Origin: Elsinoe ampelina | Lineage: Eukaryota | Reading direction: 5' to 3' | NCBI GenBank assembly: GCA_010093995.1 | Contig: ML992502.1 | Coordinates: 2,488,728 to 2,552,727 of the forward strand | DNA length: 64,000 nucleotides | In this document: positions 53,144 through 61,515 of the stretch, piece after piece | Numbering within the stretch: the first letter of the stretch is position 1 | Layout of the letters: each line of letters begins with the position of its first letter | Program-made: the position numbers and the translations under genes | The notes under the pieces: generated by a model | Seen by the model: the letters and a program-made list of their open reading frames with translations, nothing else | Databases searched by the model: none | What the model was told of the DNA's origin: nothing

Positions 53144-54142
53144 ATGTCATTCCTTACCAGAGCTGCAGTTGCATTTGCATTCTTTACACTCGTTTCAGCA
53201 CAGACGACTTGCTATTACCCAGACAAGACCATAGCCTCGACAGATATCCCATGTAGCAGTAATGGACAAGCCACGCACTGCTGTCCTTCAGATTCGTTCT
53301 GTATGAGCAATGGGCTCTGTGCGGGAGGAGGTGTCTTGTCAAGAGCTTCATGCACGGATCAGACATGGGGGGCAGATCAGTGCGCGAGAGTGTGCCGAGA
53401 CAGTATGGCATCCTAAACAGATCACTTGACACCTGCTGACTTTCATACAGCAAACCCGGCGAGCAGGGTATCACTTACACCTTGTGGAGGACAGAGCTTC
53501 GCCTGCGGACTGAATACAACTTCATGCCAGACAGGACAGGGCATCGTCACTTTCGAACGACCAACCGCGCTTGTCCTCAGACCGGCCCAAGTAGCAGCGT
53601 TACTCGCAGCACAAGGTATCAACACGACCACCCCTTCGCCCTCACCAACACAGACCGCATCCGAGGAGCCACTCTATGTGGACGGCCAACGCATGTACCC
53701 TAGCTCAACCGTCCTTGCTCTTGGACTCGGCATGGGCTTCCCACTCGCATTCCTCGTCATCGCAGTCATCGTCATGTACCGAAAATTAAGAGCAAGGGCA
53801 CCACGGGATATGTATGACCCGCCAGATCAACCTCCTGTACCCATGGTGGCCAGATCGGTCTCATCACGACCCTCCACTTCGTCAATTGGACGCTCACCAA
53901 CAATCCATACCATGCACTCTTCGCATACACTCCACGAACCGGCTACCATGCCAAGATCATTCCTCGACCGCTACGCGCAGAAGGCTAAAGAAGATCCCGA
54001 AGTACACGAAATCGATATGGGCAATCCGAGATACGAGCTGGGTCCCAATCACGTTGGACGAAGTCTCTCTCGAGCTGAGCTCAACGGTTCGCAGCCGGTG
54101 GACACGTGGAGGAAGGTCAGCAAAGAGCCGATAGGGTACTGA
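53144..54142 (+). CDS. Signal peptide + Cys-rich ectodomain + Ser/Thr linker + single TM + cytoplasmic tail (Mid2/WSC-like sensor architecture)
   Basis: MSFLTRAAVAFAFFTLVSA; TCYYPD..CC..C.SNGLC..RASCTDQTW; TM LALGLGMGFPLAFLVIAVIVMYRK; tail motifs HEID and RYEL. Intron near 53403-53450. Confidence 0.82.
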
Positions 54143-54534: not shown

Positions 54535-57500
54535 ATGGCATCCCTTCTATTATCCGCATCTCTCCTCGCCTGCATCGCTTCCGCTTTGCCTCTTAATTCC
54601 CCGCTTCTGCCTGCCTATGACTACATCAGTCAGTCGCGTTTGCTATCTACCTGACGTTTGCTGACACTACGCAGTTGTCGGAGGTGGTGCATCAGGTCTC
54701 ACTGTTGCGAATCGACTATCAGAGGATCCATCCGTCACAGTCCTTGTCATCGAAGCCGGAGAAGCAGATCAAGCTGAACCGTCAGTTCGATCGCCATTCC
54801 TTGCAGGTCAGAACATTGCCAGTCGATACGATTGGAACATCACAACAGCTCCGCAAACGTCTCTCGACGGTAACCCTCGAAGGATTTCGCAAGGCCGTGT
54901 GCTTGGGGGCGGAACCACAATCGGAGGTCTGTTATGGGGTCGACCAAACAAAGGAGACCTAGATGACTGGGTGCGTTTGGGTAATCCCGGATAGGGCTGG
55001 GATGATCTCCTGCCGTATTTCAGAAAGGTATGACAAGTCACTGGTGACTGCAGAGCATCTCTGACGAATCCTAGACCGAGTCTTACTTTGCCGGACTGTC
55101 TCGTCGTCAAGAGGTAGCTGGACCGACAGCCCAGCAACTTGATGCATTTGGCTACACTGGACCGGTACAAGTCAGCTATCCCGCCTATGCTTATAATCAG
55201 TCTTCGAGCATACTCGCTGGACTCAACGAGCTCGGCTTTCCGAGTATGGCAGACATGAGCTCTGGAGAAATGTCCGGCGCGGCTGTTTTACCTTTGACCG
55301 TAGACCCGTCCACGAATGAGAGATCGGACGCACGCACTGCTTATCTGGACCCGTATCTCGCCAGACCCAATCTCAATATCGTCACTGGTCATACAGCGAC
55401 CCGATTACTTTTCGAGAATTCGTCCAGTGTCACCACGCCAGCTTTCGCCTTCAATGGTAGCACAGCCATTGCCAGTCTGCTTCCCCTCCAAAGTGGTATC
55501 CGACAACGCTCAGAAGGGACCGAGAATGCAGCTCCGGCCGGCTCCTGGTCTTGGAAAAGAAGTCAACGTGCCAATCTACCTCACATCATCCGACGTCAGC
55601 AGGTCCAAAACACATTTCTCCGCCCAAACGGTCTGAGAATCAGTGGCGTTGAGGTAGGATCTTGCTACGTCGTTGCGTGGCTCAGAGCTAACACGATGAA
55701 GCTAGCTACCAGTGCCGTCAGCGTGAGGCGAACAGTCAGCGCCACTCAAGAAGTCATCCTTGCCGCAGGCACAATCAATACGCCTCAGCTGCTAAAGCTC
55801 TCTGGTATCGGTCCTTCGCAGGAGCTTCAAGCAAGACAGATTACAAGCAGGATTGATCTGGTTGGAGTAGGAGCCAACTTGCAAGATCACTATCTTTTGA
55901 GCCTGACATGTATGCCGCTTCGTCGTTCCCAATCTACAAACCTTCTGACATCTACCAGATCCCTCTCGATCCTCCCGCTTCACCTCTGGAGGTCTTGTGC
56001 GCAATTTGACCAATGTAACGTCCTCGGTCGGTCCACAAGAAGCAATTGTCTTGCCACCTCTGGCTCGAGTTTCCAATCGCACAACACAGCTCACCGCAAC
56101 TATCCAGTCTCAGACCATCGCCGAGTATCTGCTGCCCGGAACAGATACAACCATCGTCACCGGCTTTCAAGCACAACGTACGTTTCTTCTGGAAGCCTTC
56201 CTCAGTACCACAAGGTCGTTCTAGGAGATGATTGGATCGAATGAGGGAGGCTGGGCGATTGTGAATAGACGGTCACTGTCACGGGGGACAGTCACACTCG
56301 CATCCTCGTCCCCCTTTGAAGCACCCAACGTTGATCCTCGCTACGGCGTCAATTCAGTCGATATCGAGCTGCTGATTGAATCAGTCATGTTTGCAGAGAG
56401 ACTGTTCATGACTGCTCCTTTTCGCACCACCAATAGCTCGGCGCTCCGCTCGATCATGTCGTCATCTAACATGCAGACTATCGTACAACTTGTTCAGGAG
56501 CGTGTACAGACATCATACGGTCTAGTCGGAACAGCCTCGATGTTACCTCGGACTTTAGGTGGTGTGGTCGACTCGCAACTCCTGGTGTACGGGACCACCA
56601 ATCTCAGAGTGGTCGATGCGAGTGTCATGCCACTGATCCCAGCAAGCAATCTACAAGCTGTCGTCTACGCCATTGCAGAGAAGGCGGCTGATCTGATTCG
56701 AGTGGCAAGGACTGGATCTGCAGTGTCTTTACAAAGCAGCCAGACATCGAACTCAGCAGCATCATCGATCAACAGCTCGATAGGCCCAGGAGTCTCTGCG
56801 TCACGATCCATTTCGACAGGTACCGCCAGTCCCGTAGCCATATTTTCAAACACGATTAATTCGGCCCCAGTCTTGTCGGACCTCTCCGGAGCACGATCAA
56901 CCCTATCGAACATCTTCGGCAGTTCTTTGCCTCGGACTCTGGCTTCACAAACGACAGTACCATCCACAACGGCGCCCTCATCAATCAGTACCACGACATC
57001 AGGACTGACCAATGTGCGGACAACTTCTCACGCAGCTCCTTCGAATCTGCCGGCTAGATCTACCTCTACAGCTCCAGGCACCAGCTCGGACTCTCAAGCT
57101 CAGGGAGTGACTGGTATTTTGGGTTCCAGCGATGCTAGGTCTACAATACTGGCGACATTTGGGACTTTCGGCACGGGTATGGTCATGTTGAGGCCAGGAA
57201 GCTCGCAGCCAGCAGCATCCTTGACCTTGTCAGACACTGGAATTACACGCTCGACAATACTTGGTACGTTCGGCACTACAGGCACTGGCGTCGTGGTGGT
57301 CAATGTACCCGCGCTTCAAGGACCGACGAACACTCCTCAGGCTAGCTCAGCCGTGACCACCACTTCACAGCCGTTTGTGGCCGCGATGAACTCATCAGCC
57401 TCACCAATGGGCAACTCCAGTATTTCTAGCACGCTTGTAGTGAGACCCACCTCCACGATGGTGGACAATCTTGTCATCCGTACCGTGCCATCTGGCTTGC

Positions 57501-59308
57501 AGCTACTCAACGACACCACACCAGGATGTACCACAAGGTGTCCAATGCCAGTATATGTCACAACTGTTTAGCGGACGGTCATAACTTCTGTCTCGATCAG
57601 CACCATGTCACACTTGTCTCCTACCTTGGTGGCTTCTAGCTTGTCGTATCCATGCACCACTTTGACAATAATCAGGACCAGTACTCTCAGTATCACTCAG
57701 CCTGGCTATGCAACACATCCCACGACAGTCCCATACCGGATTTCTACCGTGGTCCTACCTCTGATACTGTATCTGTCCCAACAACTCGTGCATCCGGCTT
57801 CTGCGGTCGCATCGTCGATGGTCGGAGCTGCACCACATCCCACGGCCGCCACTCCTGCTATACAGACGATCCCGCCACTGACGGACAGTCTGCATCCTGC
57901 ATCTATTGTGACTGTAGCACCCGCTGTCTCGTACGCTATTTCATCCTACTCTGGGGCGACGTCAACAATCTCTGGTACCCATCCCAGTGTCAATGGGTCA
58001 GGCTTGGTCACCACAATCACTTCATCACATCCTACAGGCGTGACAGTGTATGTGACGACAATCTATACCATGGCATCACCATCCGCTCCGACCTCGACGA
58101 ATACCAACCCATCATCCAGCAATACCCTCAATTCAGCGGGCGTAGCATCAACGACCACACTCACGAGTCCTTCTTCGACGACTACCTTTGACAGTGCTTC
58201 TGGGGCTTCTGTGTTTTCCGTCGCAATGGCAAGCGCAATGTCCTCCTTGTTCACACAGACGGTCACCACTGCAGCTTCGGGGTCAACATCGACGTCTTCG
58301 CCATCCTTATCCACGTACTTGAGTACCGTGACGACTGTAGTGACAGTAGTGACAGGCTCTGGCACGGCTTCGACTTTGTGGCAATCTACGTGCCCATGCT
58401 CGACGAGCACAAATTTCGCTGGTCCAGCTGGTACAGCCACTACTTCGGCCCCGAGTCAGTCATCTGTTGTATCGCCTGGGCCAAGTTCAGTCCCCCCATC
58501 AGGAGTGCCGTCCGCCACTTCAGCAGTCAATTCGATCGCGTCATCGGCTGCAAATTCGTTTGCGAGCAGTGCATCTTCAGCGGCATCCATGGCAGCATCC
58601 ATGTATGGGTCTTCGGCAACTTCCATGGCATCCTCGATGGCGTCGTCATTCCAGTCAACGGCATCTCAGATCGCATCGTCTGCCGCCTCCAATTTCAGAT
58701 CTTCGGCTTCCCAGATCGCCAGCTCTGCTGCATCGGTGCACGGTACAACCGCCCCAGCAGTGGCGAGCTCTGCCATCTCGAGTCTTGGTACTGCAGCGGC
58801 AGCTCAAATGAGTAGCCACATTTCAAGCGCCTTGGCCCGTCCAAGTGTCACTACCACGACTGTTGCACCCTCGTCAGCATCAAGACCTGTGTCCACTGTC
58901 ACTTCGTCACCAACAGCTTCGACTTCGCGACCCGGGTCGACAGTCACCTCATCCCCTGCAGCCTCAACAAGGACGTCTTCGCCAGGTGTTTCGACAATCA
59001 CTTCGTCCCCGAGCCTGAGCACCAGAACAAGCAGTCCAAGTCTTTCGACACTGACCTCGACCATCTTGACGAACAATCAGAGAACCACTTTGACAAGCAT
59101 CGTGACACCGAGCACAAGCAGTAGACCAGGGAGCACAAGTACTCAGAGCTCGATCAACCGCACATCGCCGCCGATTACGGGTGCAGCCACCAGCTCGGTG
59201 GGCGTCATCACCTCGACGGTCACAAGAGCGATGGCTGGAAAGGAGAAGCAGCCGAACGAGGGCTTGGTCCTGGCTGTGGCCCTGGCTCTTCTTGGAGTCT
59301 TGATGTGA
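54535..59308 (+). pseudogene. Secreted GMC oxidoreductase (AA3) domain fused to a Ser/Thr-rich tail of over 800 aa with a hydrophobic C-terminus; interrupted by three in-frame TAG codons
   Basis: Signal peptide; YDYI|VGGGASG, VLVIEAG, GRVLGGG, EVILAAG, VGANLQDH, LSRGTV, GGVVDSQL and LRVVDASVMP. Four introns. In-frame TAG at 54992, 56222 and 57569; reading frames stay continuous across all three. Confidence 0.75.
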
Positions 59309-59662: not shown

Positions 59663-61515
59663 ATGACAAAAATGGCACCCACAACGCAACCCTCGCGGAC
59701 CACCACGCCGCGGGATCTTGTCAACACGCTGCTGCGAATAGCGAATGACCCATGGCATTTGATTTGGTTGTGTCCATTGTTGGTCTTGGGGGATATGATC
59801 TTGACGGCTGGGGTGATTTGGAAGATACCTTGTGAGTGGATTTTGATGGTTCATTGTGTTGTTTACACGGGCTTGGGGGGTGGTGGTGGACGGCTGAGAG
59901 GGGAAAGAGACTGGGGTGCTCGATGGGGGATTGGGAGGGGGGGATCGAGGGGGTTGGGAGCGATTGATCTTGCTGATGGACGCTGGATGGGGATGTGATT
60001 TGGGATGGGTCATGGATCCCATTGCTCCACCTCTTCGGCAGCCCTCAACCCAATCCGATATCCCTTCGAGCCACGCCTCCTTGGACTGGATTTGCTCGAA
60101 ACGCTACTTCTCGAGCCACTGTCCGCCTCATCTCCTTCCTACCAATCCCCCCTCTCCCTCCCTCTCAATCCCCTCACCTCTTCCCTCGACTCATCCACCC
60201 GCCCCATTCCCTCCCCACAAACCCCAATACACCCTCACTAACCCCCTCCCCTCCAGACACCGAAATCGACTGGCGCGCCTACATGCAACAAATCACCCTC
60301 TACCTCTCCGGCGAACGCAACTACCTCAAACTAACCGGGCAAACCGGCCCCCTCGTCTACCCAGCCATGCACGTACACATCTACCACCTGCTCTCCCACC
60401 TCACCTCTTCGGGCAACGACATCCTCCTCGCGCAAACCCTGTTCGCGGGGCTGTACCTCGCCACCCTCGCGCTTGTCACGCAGTGCTATCGTCTAGCGGG
60501 GGTGCCGCCGTGGGTGTACCCCCTTTTGGTGATGAGCAAGCGGCTGCACTCGGTGTACGTGCTGCGGCTGTTCAACGATTGCTTTGCGGTTTTTTTTCTC
60601 TGGGCGGGGATATACCTCTTCCAGACCGGACGGTTCAGGGCGGGGGCGTTGGCGTACTCGCTCGGGGTCGGGGTGAAGATGTCCCTCCTTCTTGCGTTGC
60701 CGGCGGTCGGGGTGGTGTTGTATCTTGCGCAAGGAGCGGGAGGGGCGTTGGGGAGTGCGATGGTCATGGTGCAGTATCAGGTGTTGATGGCGTGGCCTTT
60801 TGTGGGGTACCCGAGGGAGTATTTGGGTAGGGCGTTTGAGTTTGGGAGGAGGTTCGAGTGGAAGTGGACTGTGAATTGGCGGTGGGTGGGGAGGGAGGTG
60901 TTTGAGGATGAGAGGTTCGCGAGGGGGTTGATGGTGGGGCATGTGGTGGTGCTAGGGGGGTTTGTGGTGGAGAGGTGGTTGAGGGAGGCGGGGACTGGGG
61001 TGGGGGAGGTGCTGAAGAGTTTGGTCTACCCGGTGAGCGAGGCGAGGAAGAGGGCGTTGAAGGGGAAGGTCACGCCTGAGTTTGTGCTCACGACGGTACT
61101 CACGGCAAATGTTATTGGGATGTTGTTTGCGAGGAGTTTGCATTATCAGTTCTACAGCTGGTTGGCGTGGGGTACGCCGTATTTGCTTTGGAGGAGCGGG
61201 CAGAGTCCGCTGGCGGTTGTTGGAGTGTGGTTCGGGCAGGAAGTGGCGTGGAATATCTACCCGAGTACGAAGAATAGCTCGATGATGGTGGTGGTATGGT
61301 TGGCGGCGCAAGTGTATGGGGTGTGGGCGGCGCCGAGGGTGGAGGAGTTGTGGAAGCATCAGGAGCAGATTGCAAAGGGCGAGAAAGAGGTGCCAAAGGT
61401 GGAGGCGACTCCTGCGAAGCCCAATGGGTGCCAGGCCGTCAAGGACGATATCGATGCTGTGCCTTCGCCGAGAGAGACTGCTTCGCCTGGAAAGAGGAAG
61501 ACTCGGAAACGCTGA
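59663..61515 (+). CDS. ALG3: Dol-P-Man:Man5GlcNAc2-PP-Dol alpha-1,3-mannosyltransferase Alg3
   Basis: KIP|YTEIDWRAYMQQ across intron 59832-60256; GQTGPLVYPA, SKRLHSVYVLRLFND, WTVNWR and ARSLHYQFY. Start at 59663 or 59672. Confidence 0.93.

Follow-up and report, generated by a model that had tools for sequence, protein, structure and literature searches.

Can a gene that carries three in-frame stop codons still be a working gene? The question is raised by a GMC-oxidoreductase/mucin gene on the + strand of a 64,000-nucleotide stretch of DNA from Elsinoe ampelina (assembly GCA_010093995.1, contig ML992502.1, positions 2,488,728 to 2,552,727; called the window here, with positions counted from its first letter), a fungus of the order Myriangiales, class Dothideomycetes. 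The five joined exons give 1,527 codons followed by TGA, with zero frameshifts, and contain exactly three in-frame stops, all TAG, at codons 138 (54992), 500 (56222) and 949 (57569). The original prediction, which had claimed intact splice sites, no frameshift and exactly these three TAGs, is borne out by the frame, by the RNA contig joints and by the identical positions and peptide contexts. Of the two explanations it offered (an editing-dependent gene or a young pseudogene), the first is supported by conserved Trp columns, by stops that appear to be shared among relatives and by ordinary indices of repeat-induced point mutation (RIP). We put the probability at roughly 0.8 that the transcript undergoes stage-specific, restorative adenosine-to-inosine (A-to-I) editing from UAG to UGG; the A-to-G change itself was not seen.

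Gene structure and transcript support

The gene consists of the following parts, all on the + strand:

54535..59308, +, whole gene: hydrophobic leader, GMC oxidoreductase domain, Ser/Thr-rich stalk and hydrophobic C-terminal tail (Pfam, translation, splicing)
54535..54628, +, exon 1 (its end is matched by a loose contig end at 54675)
54629..54674, +, intron 1, 46 nt
54675..55027, +, exon 2: FAD-binding start of GMC_oxred_N (PF00732, PF13450), containing stop 1
54992..54994, +, TAG site 1, codon 138, A at 54993, in a conserved Trp column
55028..55074, +, intron 2, 47 nt, GT..AG (joint in run X3)
55075..55653, +, exon 3
55654..55701, +, intron 3, 48 nt, GT..AG, in frame, AAG acceptor (joint in run X6)
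55702..55909, +, exon 4
55910..55958, +, intron 4, 49 nt, GT..AG (joints in runs X3 and X5)
55959..59308, +, exon 5: GMC_oxred_C, stops 2 and 3, Ser/Thr stalk and terminal TGA (59306-59308)
56222..56224, +, TAG site 2, codon 500, A at 56223
57569..57571, +, TAG site 3, codon 949, A at 57570
57572..59308, +, 578 open codons past stop 3, the first 71 conserved
59261..59305, +, C-terminal hydrophobic 15-mer (from the sequence)

By eye, the first ~17 codons of exon 1 look like a signal peptide, and the C-terminal 15-mer would be a GPI-signal-like (glycosylphosphatidylinositol) sequence. Introns 2, 3 and 4 are exactly joined by RNA-type contigs, while intron 1 is matched by the loose end only. None of the runs is catalogued as RNA for this stretch; they were taken to be RNA and turned out to be spliced. 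Contigs of run X3 (spliced or gap-free, depth 4 to 9) bridge all three TAG sites with 0 other letters, and this run comes from a different study than the two possible source runs, its tissue not being on record. The TAGs are therefore real and exonic, they are unedited in the X3 sample, and the assembly error that had been raised as an alternative does not account for them. Runs X4 to X6 represent another strain (T>C at 54066 in all three), and none of their listed pieces spans a TAG.

Trp columns and stops in orthologues

The closest homologues are those of Elsinoe batatas (87%), E. fawcettii, E. australis, Sphaceloma murrayae and Myriangium duriaei, and in a quick tree (59 of 133 rows) the query and these five orthologues form one clade (SH-aLRT, an approximate likelihood ratio test, 100), with a path of ~0.6 substitutions per site from the query to E. 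australis.

Site 1 had been recognised as the conserved Trp of GMC proteins, and indeed 106 of the 110 homologues that cover both flanks have Trp there. The Myriangium orthologue has Trp as well. The remaining four have a gap, and these are precisely the four Elsinoe/Sphaceloma orthologue models, all of which skip the site. Their gaps have four different lengths, and two models resume directly past the site, as if the TAG had been used as a false acceptor.

At site 2, E. fawcettii, E. australis, S. murrayae and Myriangium have Trp, and the E. batatas model skips the column, which among 132 homologues is mostly occupied by Tyr (57) or Phe (25). Trp is confined to the Myriangiales orthologues here, and the change from Tyr to Trp takes two steps, via either TAG or a Cys codon. 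It could have arisen via an edited TAG, in which case editing would date to the ancestor of the Myriangiales.

At site 3, three of the four Elsinoe/Sphaceloma models (E. batatas, E. australis and S. murrayae) end on the residue that precedes the site, while the E. fawcettii model has Trp and continues beyond it. The tail of E. australis past site 3 exists as a separate model under an adjacent accession number, with 43 of 61 residues identical to the query tail.

Judged from these predicted proteins, stops at the same sites appear to be common to the Elsinoe/Sphaceloma species, and Trp is the residue wherever an orthologue has a sense codon, in line with the earlier expectation that Trp is plausible at all three sites; CAG or other codons at sites 2 and 3, named beforehand as the contrary outcome, find no counterpart in the protein models. 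For three random nonsense changes, with Trp taken as the prior codon, the chance that all are TGG>TAG is 1.5e-5 over all single-base paths, 0.0016 if only transitions are considered and 0.004 if only CpA/RIP-type changes are. A metagenome scan (80 loci) contained no orthologue, the best match reaching 53% on short segments, and a search among shorter proteins gave 12 matches, none of them an Elsinoe fragment of this gene.

The Myriangium duriaei orthologue (P0005) begins just before site 1 and has no leader, FAD motif or conserved tail; it may hide further stops or may simply be a poor model.

A second gene with a TAG in a Trp column

A search of the genome for the Cdc20 family returned two canonical genes and a third on contig C1 (L132), which we take to be AMA1-like by elimination. 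In this search 11 of 149 rows held stops; the five TAG rows were read, one of them being the AMA1-like site, and the six rows with TAA or TGA only were set aside. The site is as follows:

G000:C1:2947485-2947483, -, exonic TAG of the AMA1-like gene (Trp in the same motif of the CDC20-like and CDH1-like paralogues)

In the 104 homologues that span both flanks, a set without orthologues from E. fawcettii or E. australis, the column holds 101 Trp, 1 Arg and 2 gaps, the gaps being E. batatas and one poorly aligned row. The close outgroup Dothideomycetidae sp. 11243 has Trp. The public models of both E. batatas and E. ampelina remove 10 residues (a 30-nt false intron) around the TAG. Over a comparison of 427 residues the public E. 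ampelina protein does not differ from this genome. In S. murrayae, the start of the model lies downstream of the TAG. In Fusarium graminearum, FgAMA1 is PSC33 in the numbered set of premature stop codon (PSC) genes, and the AMA1 stop is credited with six independent origins in Sordariomycetes. Since the AMA1-like gene appears to carry the same gate, gating by editing would be a property of the genus rather than of one gene.

RNA context of the sites

Two of the three sites in the GMC/mucin mRNA lie in similar predicted hairpins:

54984..55003, +, predicted hairpin at site 1: 7-bp stem, 6-nt loop, A third in the loop (z -0.95)
56194..56252, +, predicted hairpin at site 2: 7-bp stem, 6-nt loop, A third in the loop, 11-bp outer helix

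The site-2 hairpin (z -3.27, with 0 of 200 shuffles as stable) is the most stable among the 140 UA sites of the mRNA. Only two of these 140 sites, namely sites 1 and 2, combine a stem of at least 6 bp, a loop of 6-7 nt and an A third in the loop (61-nt folds, the criterion having been set post hoc). An A in this position, following a U, resembles A34 of the tRNA anticodon loop. The adenosines of site 3 and of the AMA1-like site are unpaired in most fold windows, and of the 16 free flanking positions at the four sites, 11 carry a base that is preferred in Fusarium (p ~0.01). The fungal editing context as a whole (U at -1, purines downstream, hairpin loop) is fully matched at site 2, the site-1 hairpin being sensitive to window size and the other two sites lacking a stable one (see below).

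Constraint beyond the stops

Compared with E. batatas, 124/130 residues are identical ahead of stop 1, 452/494 across the GMC domain that follows it and 210/288 in the linker. The difference between GMC domain and linker is pronounced (Fisher p 1e-11), and the domain past stop 1 is not clearly below the part that precedes it (p 0.19). Past stop 3, 55 of 71 residues are identical to E. fawcettii, compared with 112 of 264 in the linker (p 1e-7). In neutral simulations at linker divergence, 6.6 to 7.9 new stops are expected per branch, and no more than one arose in 5/300 and 0/300 runs. At the divergence of the GMC domain from E. batatas, 2 to 3 new stops are expected.

Candidate editing machinery

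Tad2-like and Tad3-like genes are present (L149 and L153, which we name so by motif), and since both proteins are universal in eukaryotes, this is weak support. There are three DUF726 matches in the genome: one Ame1-like, one that is presumably Mil1-like and one marginal. The Ame1-like gene (L004:1285-3540, G000:C11) is single copy, without duplication, and no MV dipeptide occurs in its protein along the 50 residues that lead up to the catalytic Ser; the likely MV offset, placed by hand from the Ser-Asp spacing, is occupied by VA or KS. In Fusarium, MV at 500-501 of Ame1 is required (PMC11087585). The Elsinoe protein is therefore outside the Sordariomycete system as defined, and this makes an independent origin of editing possible; it may nevertheless work like Sordariomycete Ame1. 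In the supplement of PMC11087585, four Myriangiales Ame1 orthologues stand apart from those of Aureobasidium and Zymoseptoria, and if that list is in tree order, the Myriangiales Ame1-like protein may be a different or fast-evolving copy. Solved structures gave no match to the Ame1-like protein, and an Atlas search gave only DUF726 clusters.

The genome also has two cytosine-deaminase-like paralogues (L147, L150), which we take to be Fcy1-like. Among the deaminases, one TAG was met, and it is intronic.

The editing model and its weak points

Taken together, the following course of events is proposed. In most cells the spliced mRNA would keep UAG at codon 138, and translation would give no more than a stub of 137 residues. 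Then, at one stage of the life cycle, for which the ascostroma is the most likely place, the A of each UAG would be converted into inosine by an adenosine deaminase, and the codon would be read as UGG (Trp), as in Fusarium and Neurospora, so that all 1,527 residues are translated. This deaminase is likely to be Tad2-Tad3, which edits tRNA, acting with an activator on hairpins that resemble the anticodon loop. Partial editing of site 3 would lead to a 948-residue form without the anchor tail, and full editing to the anchored form. The predicted product is secreted and has a GMC fold carried on a mucin stalk, probably with a GPI anchor.

Several observations weigh against this model. No A>G rows occur in the contigs of the four runs over 6.6 kb, and all three TAGs are unedited in X3, although contigs drop rare variants. 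The site-1 hairpin depends on the fold window and is lost at 81 nt or more, and the folds contain no stable hairpin at site 3 or at the AMA1-like site. SPO11, SPO22 and a RID-like gene, which are PSC genes in Fusarium, have no such stop and were read as intact, and the kinases, for which 125 of 193 candidates were scored, gave 137 matches, of which 23 contained stops, each of them intronic when read by eye. The missing MV of the Ame1-like protein belongs here too, as does the fact that the stops of the other species were deduced from gaps and ends of predicted proteins rather than from DNA. The E. australis tail model, moreover, runs out of frame after 61 residues while still matching the +1 frame of the query tail (E 5e-15), a sign either of a faulty model or of a genuine frameshift in that species. 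Finally, no more than one new stop arose in 14 to 39% of the neutral runs at GMC-domain divergence, so that the E. batatas pair by itself is compatible with decay.

A survey of other families also speaks against a general pattern. WD40 repeats (0 of 150 matches) and MFS transporters (0 of 10 matches, with 9 of 324 candidates scored) held none, and among 26 GMC rows two others held stops, one intronic and one a TGA row that was left out of the reading. Two de novo scans, which looked for stops with coding-like or long frames on their flanks, could not tell TAG apart from TAA and TGA, the known sites falling below the threshold. TAG terminates ordinary WD40 genes (L140, L141) and the kinase Trp codons read normally, for which reason the genetic code is not reassigned. 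A code in which TAG means Trp was considered and rejected: in the families searched, TAG is not widespread at Trp columns, and it serves as a terminator.

Alternative explanations

Could the gene simply be decaying? An ordinary pseudogene, produced by RIP-like or random nonsense mutation, was called equally viable by the original prediction, and some points are in its favour, as TGG>TAG, seen from the opposite strand, is a transition of CpA type, the genome has a RID-like gene and the usual catalytic His of the protein is lost (see below). The signs of RIP inactivation (raised TpA/ApT, depleted CpA/TpG, repeated sequence), however, are absent from the gene: its TpA/ApT of 0.59 and substrate index of 1.20 equal those of the window (0.57 and 1.25), 57 CAA/CAG targets are untouched and it is single copy by DNA search. 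The stops also appear to be shared over the ~0.6 substitutions per site of tree path, the frame is constrained and the His loss occurs in the intact-looking Myriangium protein as well. That equal standing is thus not upheld, and the pseudogene, already largely refuted, is the least probable explanation considered. A related possibility is that the stops were fixed during a past period of editing, which has since lapsed in a largely asexual pathogen and left the genes recently dead. Against such a relic stand 1,527 codons without frameshift or extra stop, constraint kept on the short branch to E. batatas, the intact SPO11, SPO22 and RID-like genes, and the fact that asci and ascospores are reported, all of which make it improbable.

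Two further explanations leave the RNA letters as they are. Translational readthrough, or a UAG suppressor tRNA, would fit the unedited RNA, the conserved frames and an Ame1-like protein without MV, and the tRNA survey scored 63 of 820 candidates, giving 18 loci, none of which is tRNA-Trp. No CTA anticodon was found in those 18 tRNA loci, however, the code is not reassigned, and all four sites fall at Trp columns, whereas near-cognate UAG readthrough mostly inserts Gln, Tyr or Lys. Three successive leaky stops, in addition, would give almost no product, and we consider readthrough unlikely, if somewhat less so than a relic. Regulated alternative splicing could remove the stops, as the public models assume: GT..AG stretches enclose the stops at site 1 (24 nt), site 2 (51 nt) and the AMA1-like site (30 nt), and five public models use such cuts. 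These cuts vary by species, two are far shorter than the real introns of 46-49 nt, they remove conserved Trp motifs, none is modelled at site 3, and the spliced X3 contigs keep the sites. Splicing is accordingly a highly improbable explanation, ranking just above the pseudogene, and restorative editing is the reading followed below.

The protein and its likely role

The protein has both GMC_oxred_N and GMC_oxred_C (Pfam) and the GxGxxG FAD motif (FAD, flavin adenine dinucleotide), its nearest solved structures being 6ze2, 6xut and 6o9n (E 5.6e-24 to 6ze2). Two positions of the active site are of interest:

56519..56521, +, Gly599 at the first GMC active-site His column (homologues and alignments to solved structures)
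56648..56650, +, Asn642 at the second active-site His/Asn column (H 112, N 14 and Y 6 of 132)

The first column holds His in 127 of 132 homologues and N or G in the five Myriangiales orthologues. In other words, the active-site His base of an active GMC oxidoreductase is absent from the Elsinoe protein, which has Gly599 instead, and because this usual catalytic His is lost, the best guess is that the protein acts structurally or in some non-standard way. The product resembles fungal AA3_2-type GMC oxidoreductases in its FAD motif and its two domains, but differs from them in the G/N at the first His, the long clade stem, a ~870-residue Ser/Thr stalk and an anchor-like tail. It is best seen, from its sequence features, as a wall-anchored GMC-fold protein whose catalysis may be altered or lost, and to place it in the walls of asci or ascospores is a guess that follows from the editing model. 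The Myriangiales clade sits on a long stem branch (0.85).

Relation to known editing systems

According to the literature, editing is common in Sordariomycetes, has arisen independently in Pyronema and was not found in Aspergillus nidulans or Botrytis cinerea. Which ascomycete groups edit mRNA beyond Sordariomycetes and some Pezizomycetes is called an open question in one review (PMC11156358), and pseudothecial fungi are named as uninvestigated in another (PMC7306014). One paper mentions, without editing data, that individual species of other classes have premature stops at PSC sites; its supplementary tables name no Elsinoe, Myriangium or Dothideomycetes (figures S5-S6 being outside this check). 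A literature search, covering few subscription papers, turned up no description of editing or of PSC genes for Elsinoe or for Dothideomycetes. The suggestion that the host lies outside the lineages with known editing therefore holds: it is a Dothideomycete, and reports were located only for Sordariomycetes and Pyronema.

The closest parallels are the F. graminearum PSC genes (PUK1, AMD1, FgAMA1, FgRID1, FgSPO11), which share in-frame TAGs at Trp positions and false introns in the gene models (PMC10776026, PMC13251820), as well as TAG/TGG switching among relatives, a hairpin context, many disordered proteins and AMA1 among the targets (compared by gene, not by codon). The F. graminearum table of 71, in contrast, lists no GMC gene and at most two sites per gene, compared with three in the Elsinoe GMC gene; editing is shown there and inferred here, in a Dothideomycete host. 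To the Sordariomycete Tad2-Tad3-Ame1 complex (PMC11087585) Elsinoe has putative Tad2-like, Tad3-like and DUF726 Ame1-like counterparts, but one Ame1-type copy without MV. Sexual-stage editing in Pyronema confluens (Pezizomycetes) is likewise an origin outside Sordariomycetes that is taken as independent; Ame1 is duplicated there, whereas Elsinoe is listed with one copy. We lean slightly towards a separate evolution of editing in Elsinoe, which would be a third ascomycete origin and the first in Dothideomycetes, without the Sordariomycete form of Ame1 and converging on the gating of AMA1.

What follows from the analysis is, in any case, a set of four exact adenosines in two genes as editing candidates in a Dothideomycete. 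Editing without the MV form of Ame1, if true, would be a second way of turning the tRNA editor onto mRNA. If the editing reading is true, public Elsinoe models hide such genes behind false introns, DNA sequence by itself could reveal editing lineages through TAGs in Trp columns, and selection would be acting on the sexual stage of these crop pathogens, about which little is known.

Neighbouring features

Some ~21 kb before the window, four divergent kinase-like matches are clustered at G000:C2:2453060-2467401 (L031, L032). Upstream of the GMC/mucin gene lies a gene at 53417-54142 with a transmembrane-like stretch and without a Pfam match, which is covered by contigs of all four runs. Close behind the GMC/mucin gene follows the 5' part of a downstream gene (59800-59831 and ~60224 onward) that is ALG3-like by eye, in which X3 and X5 contigs join 59831 to ~60224, i.e. 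across an intron of ~390 nt.

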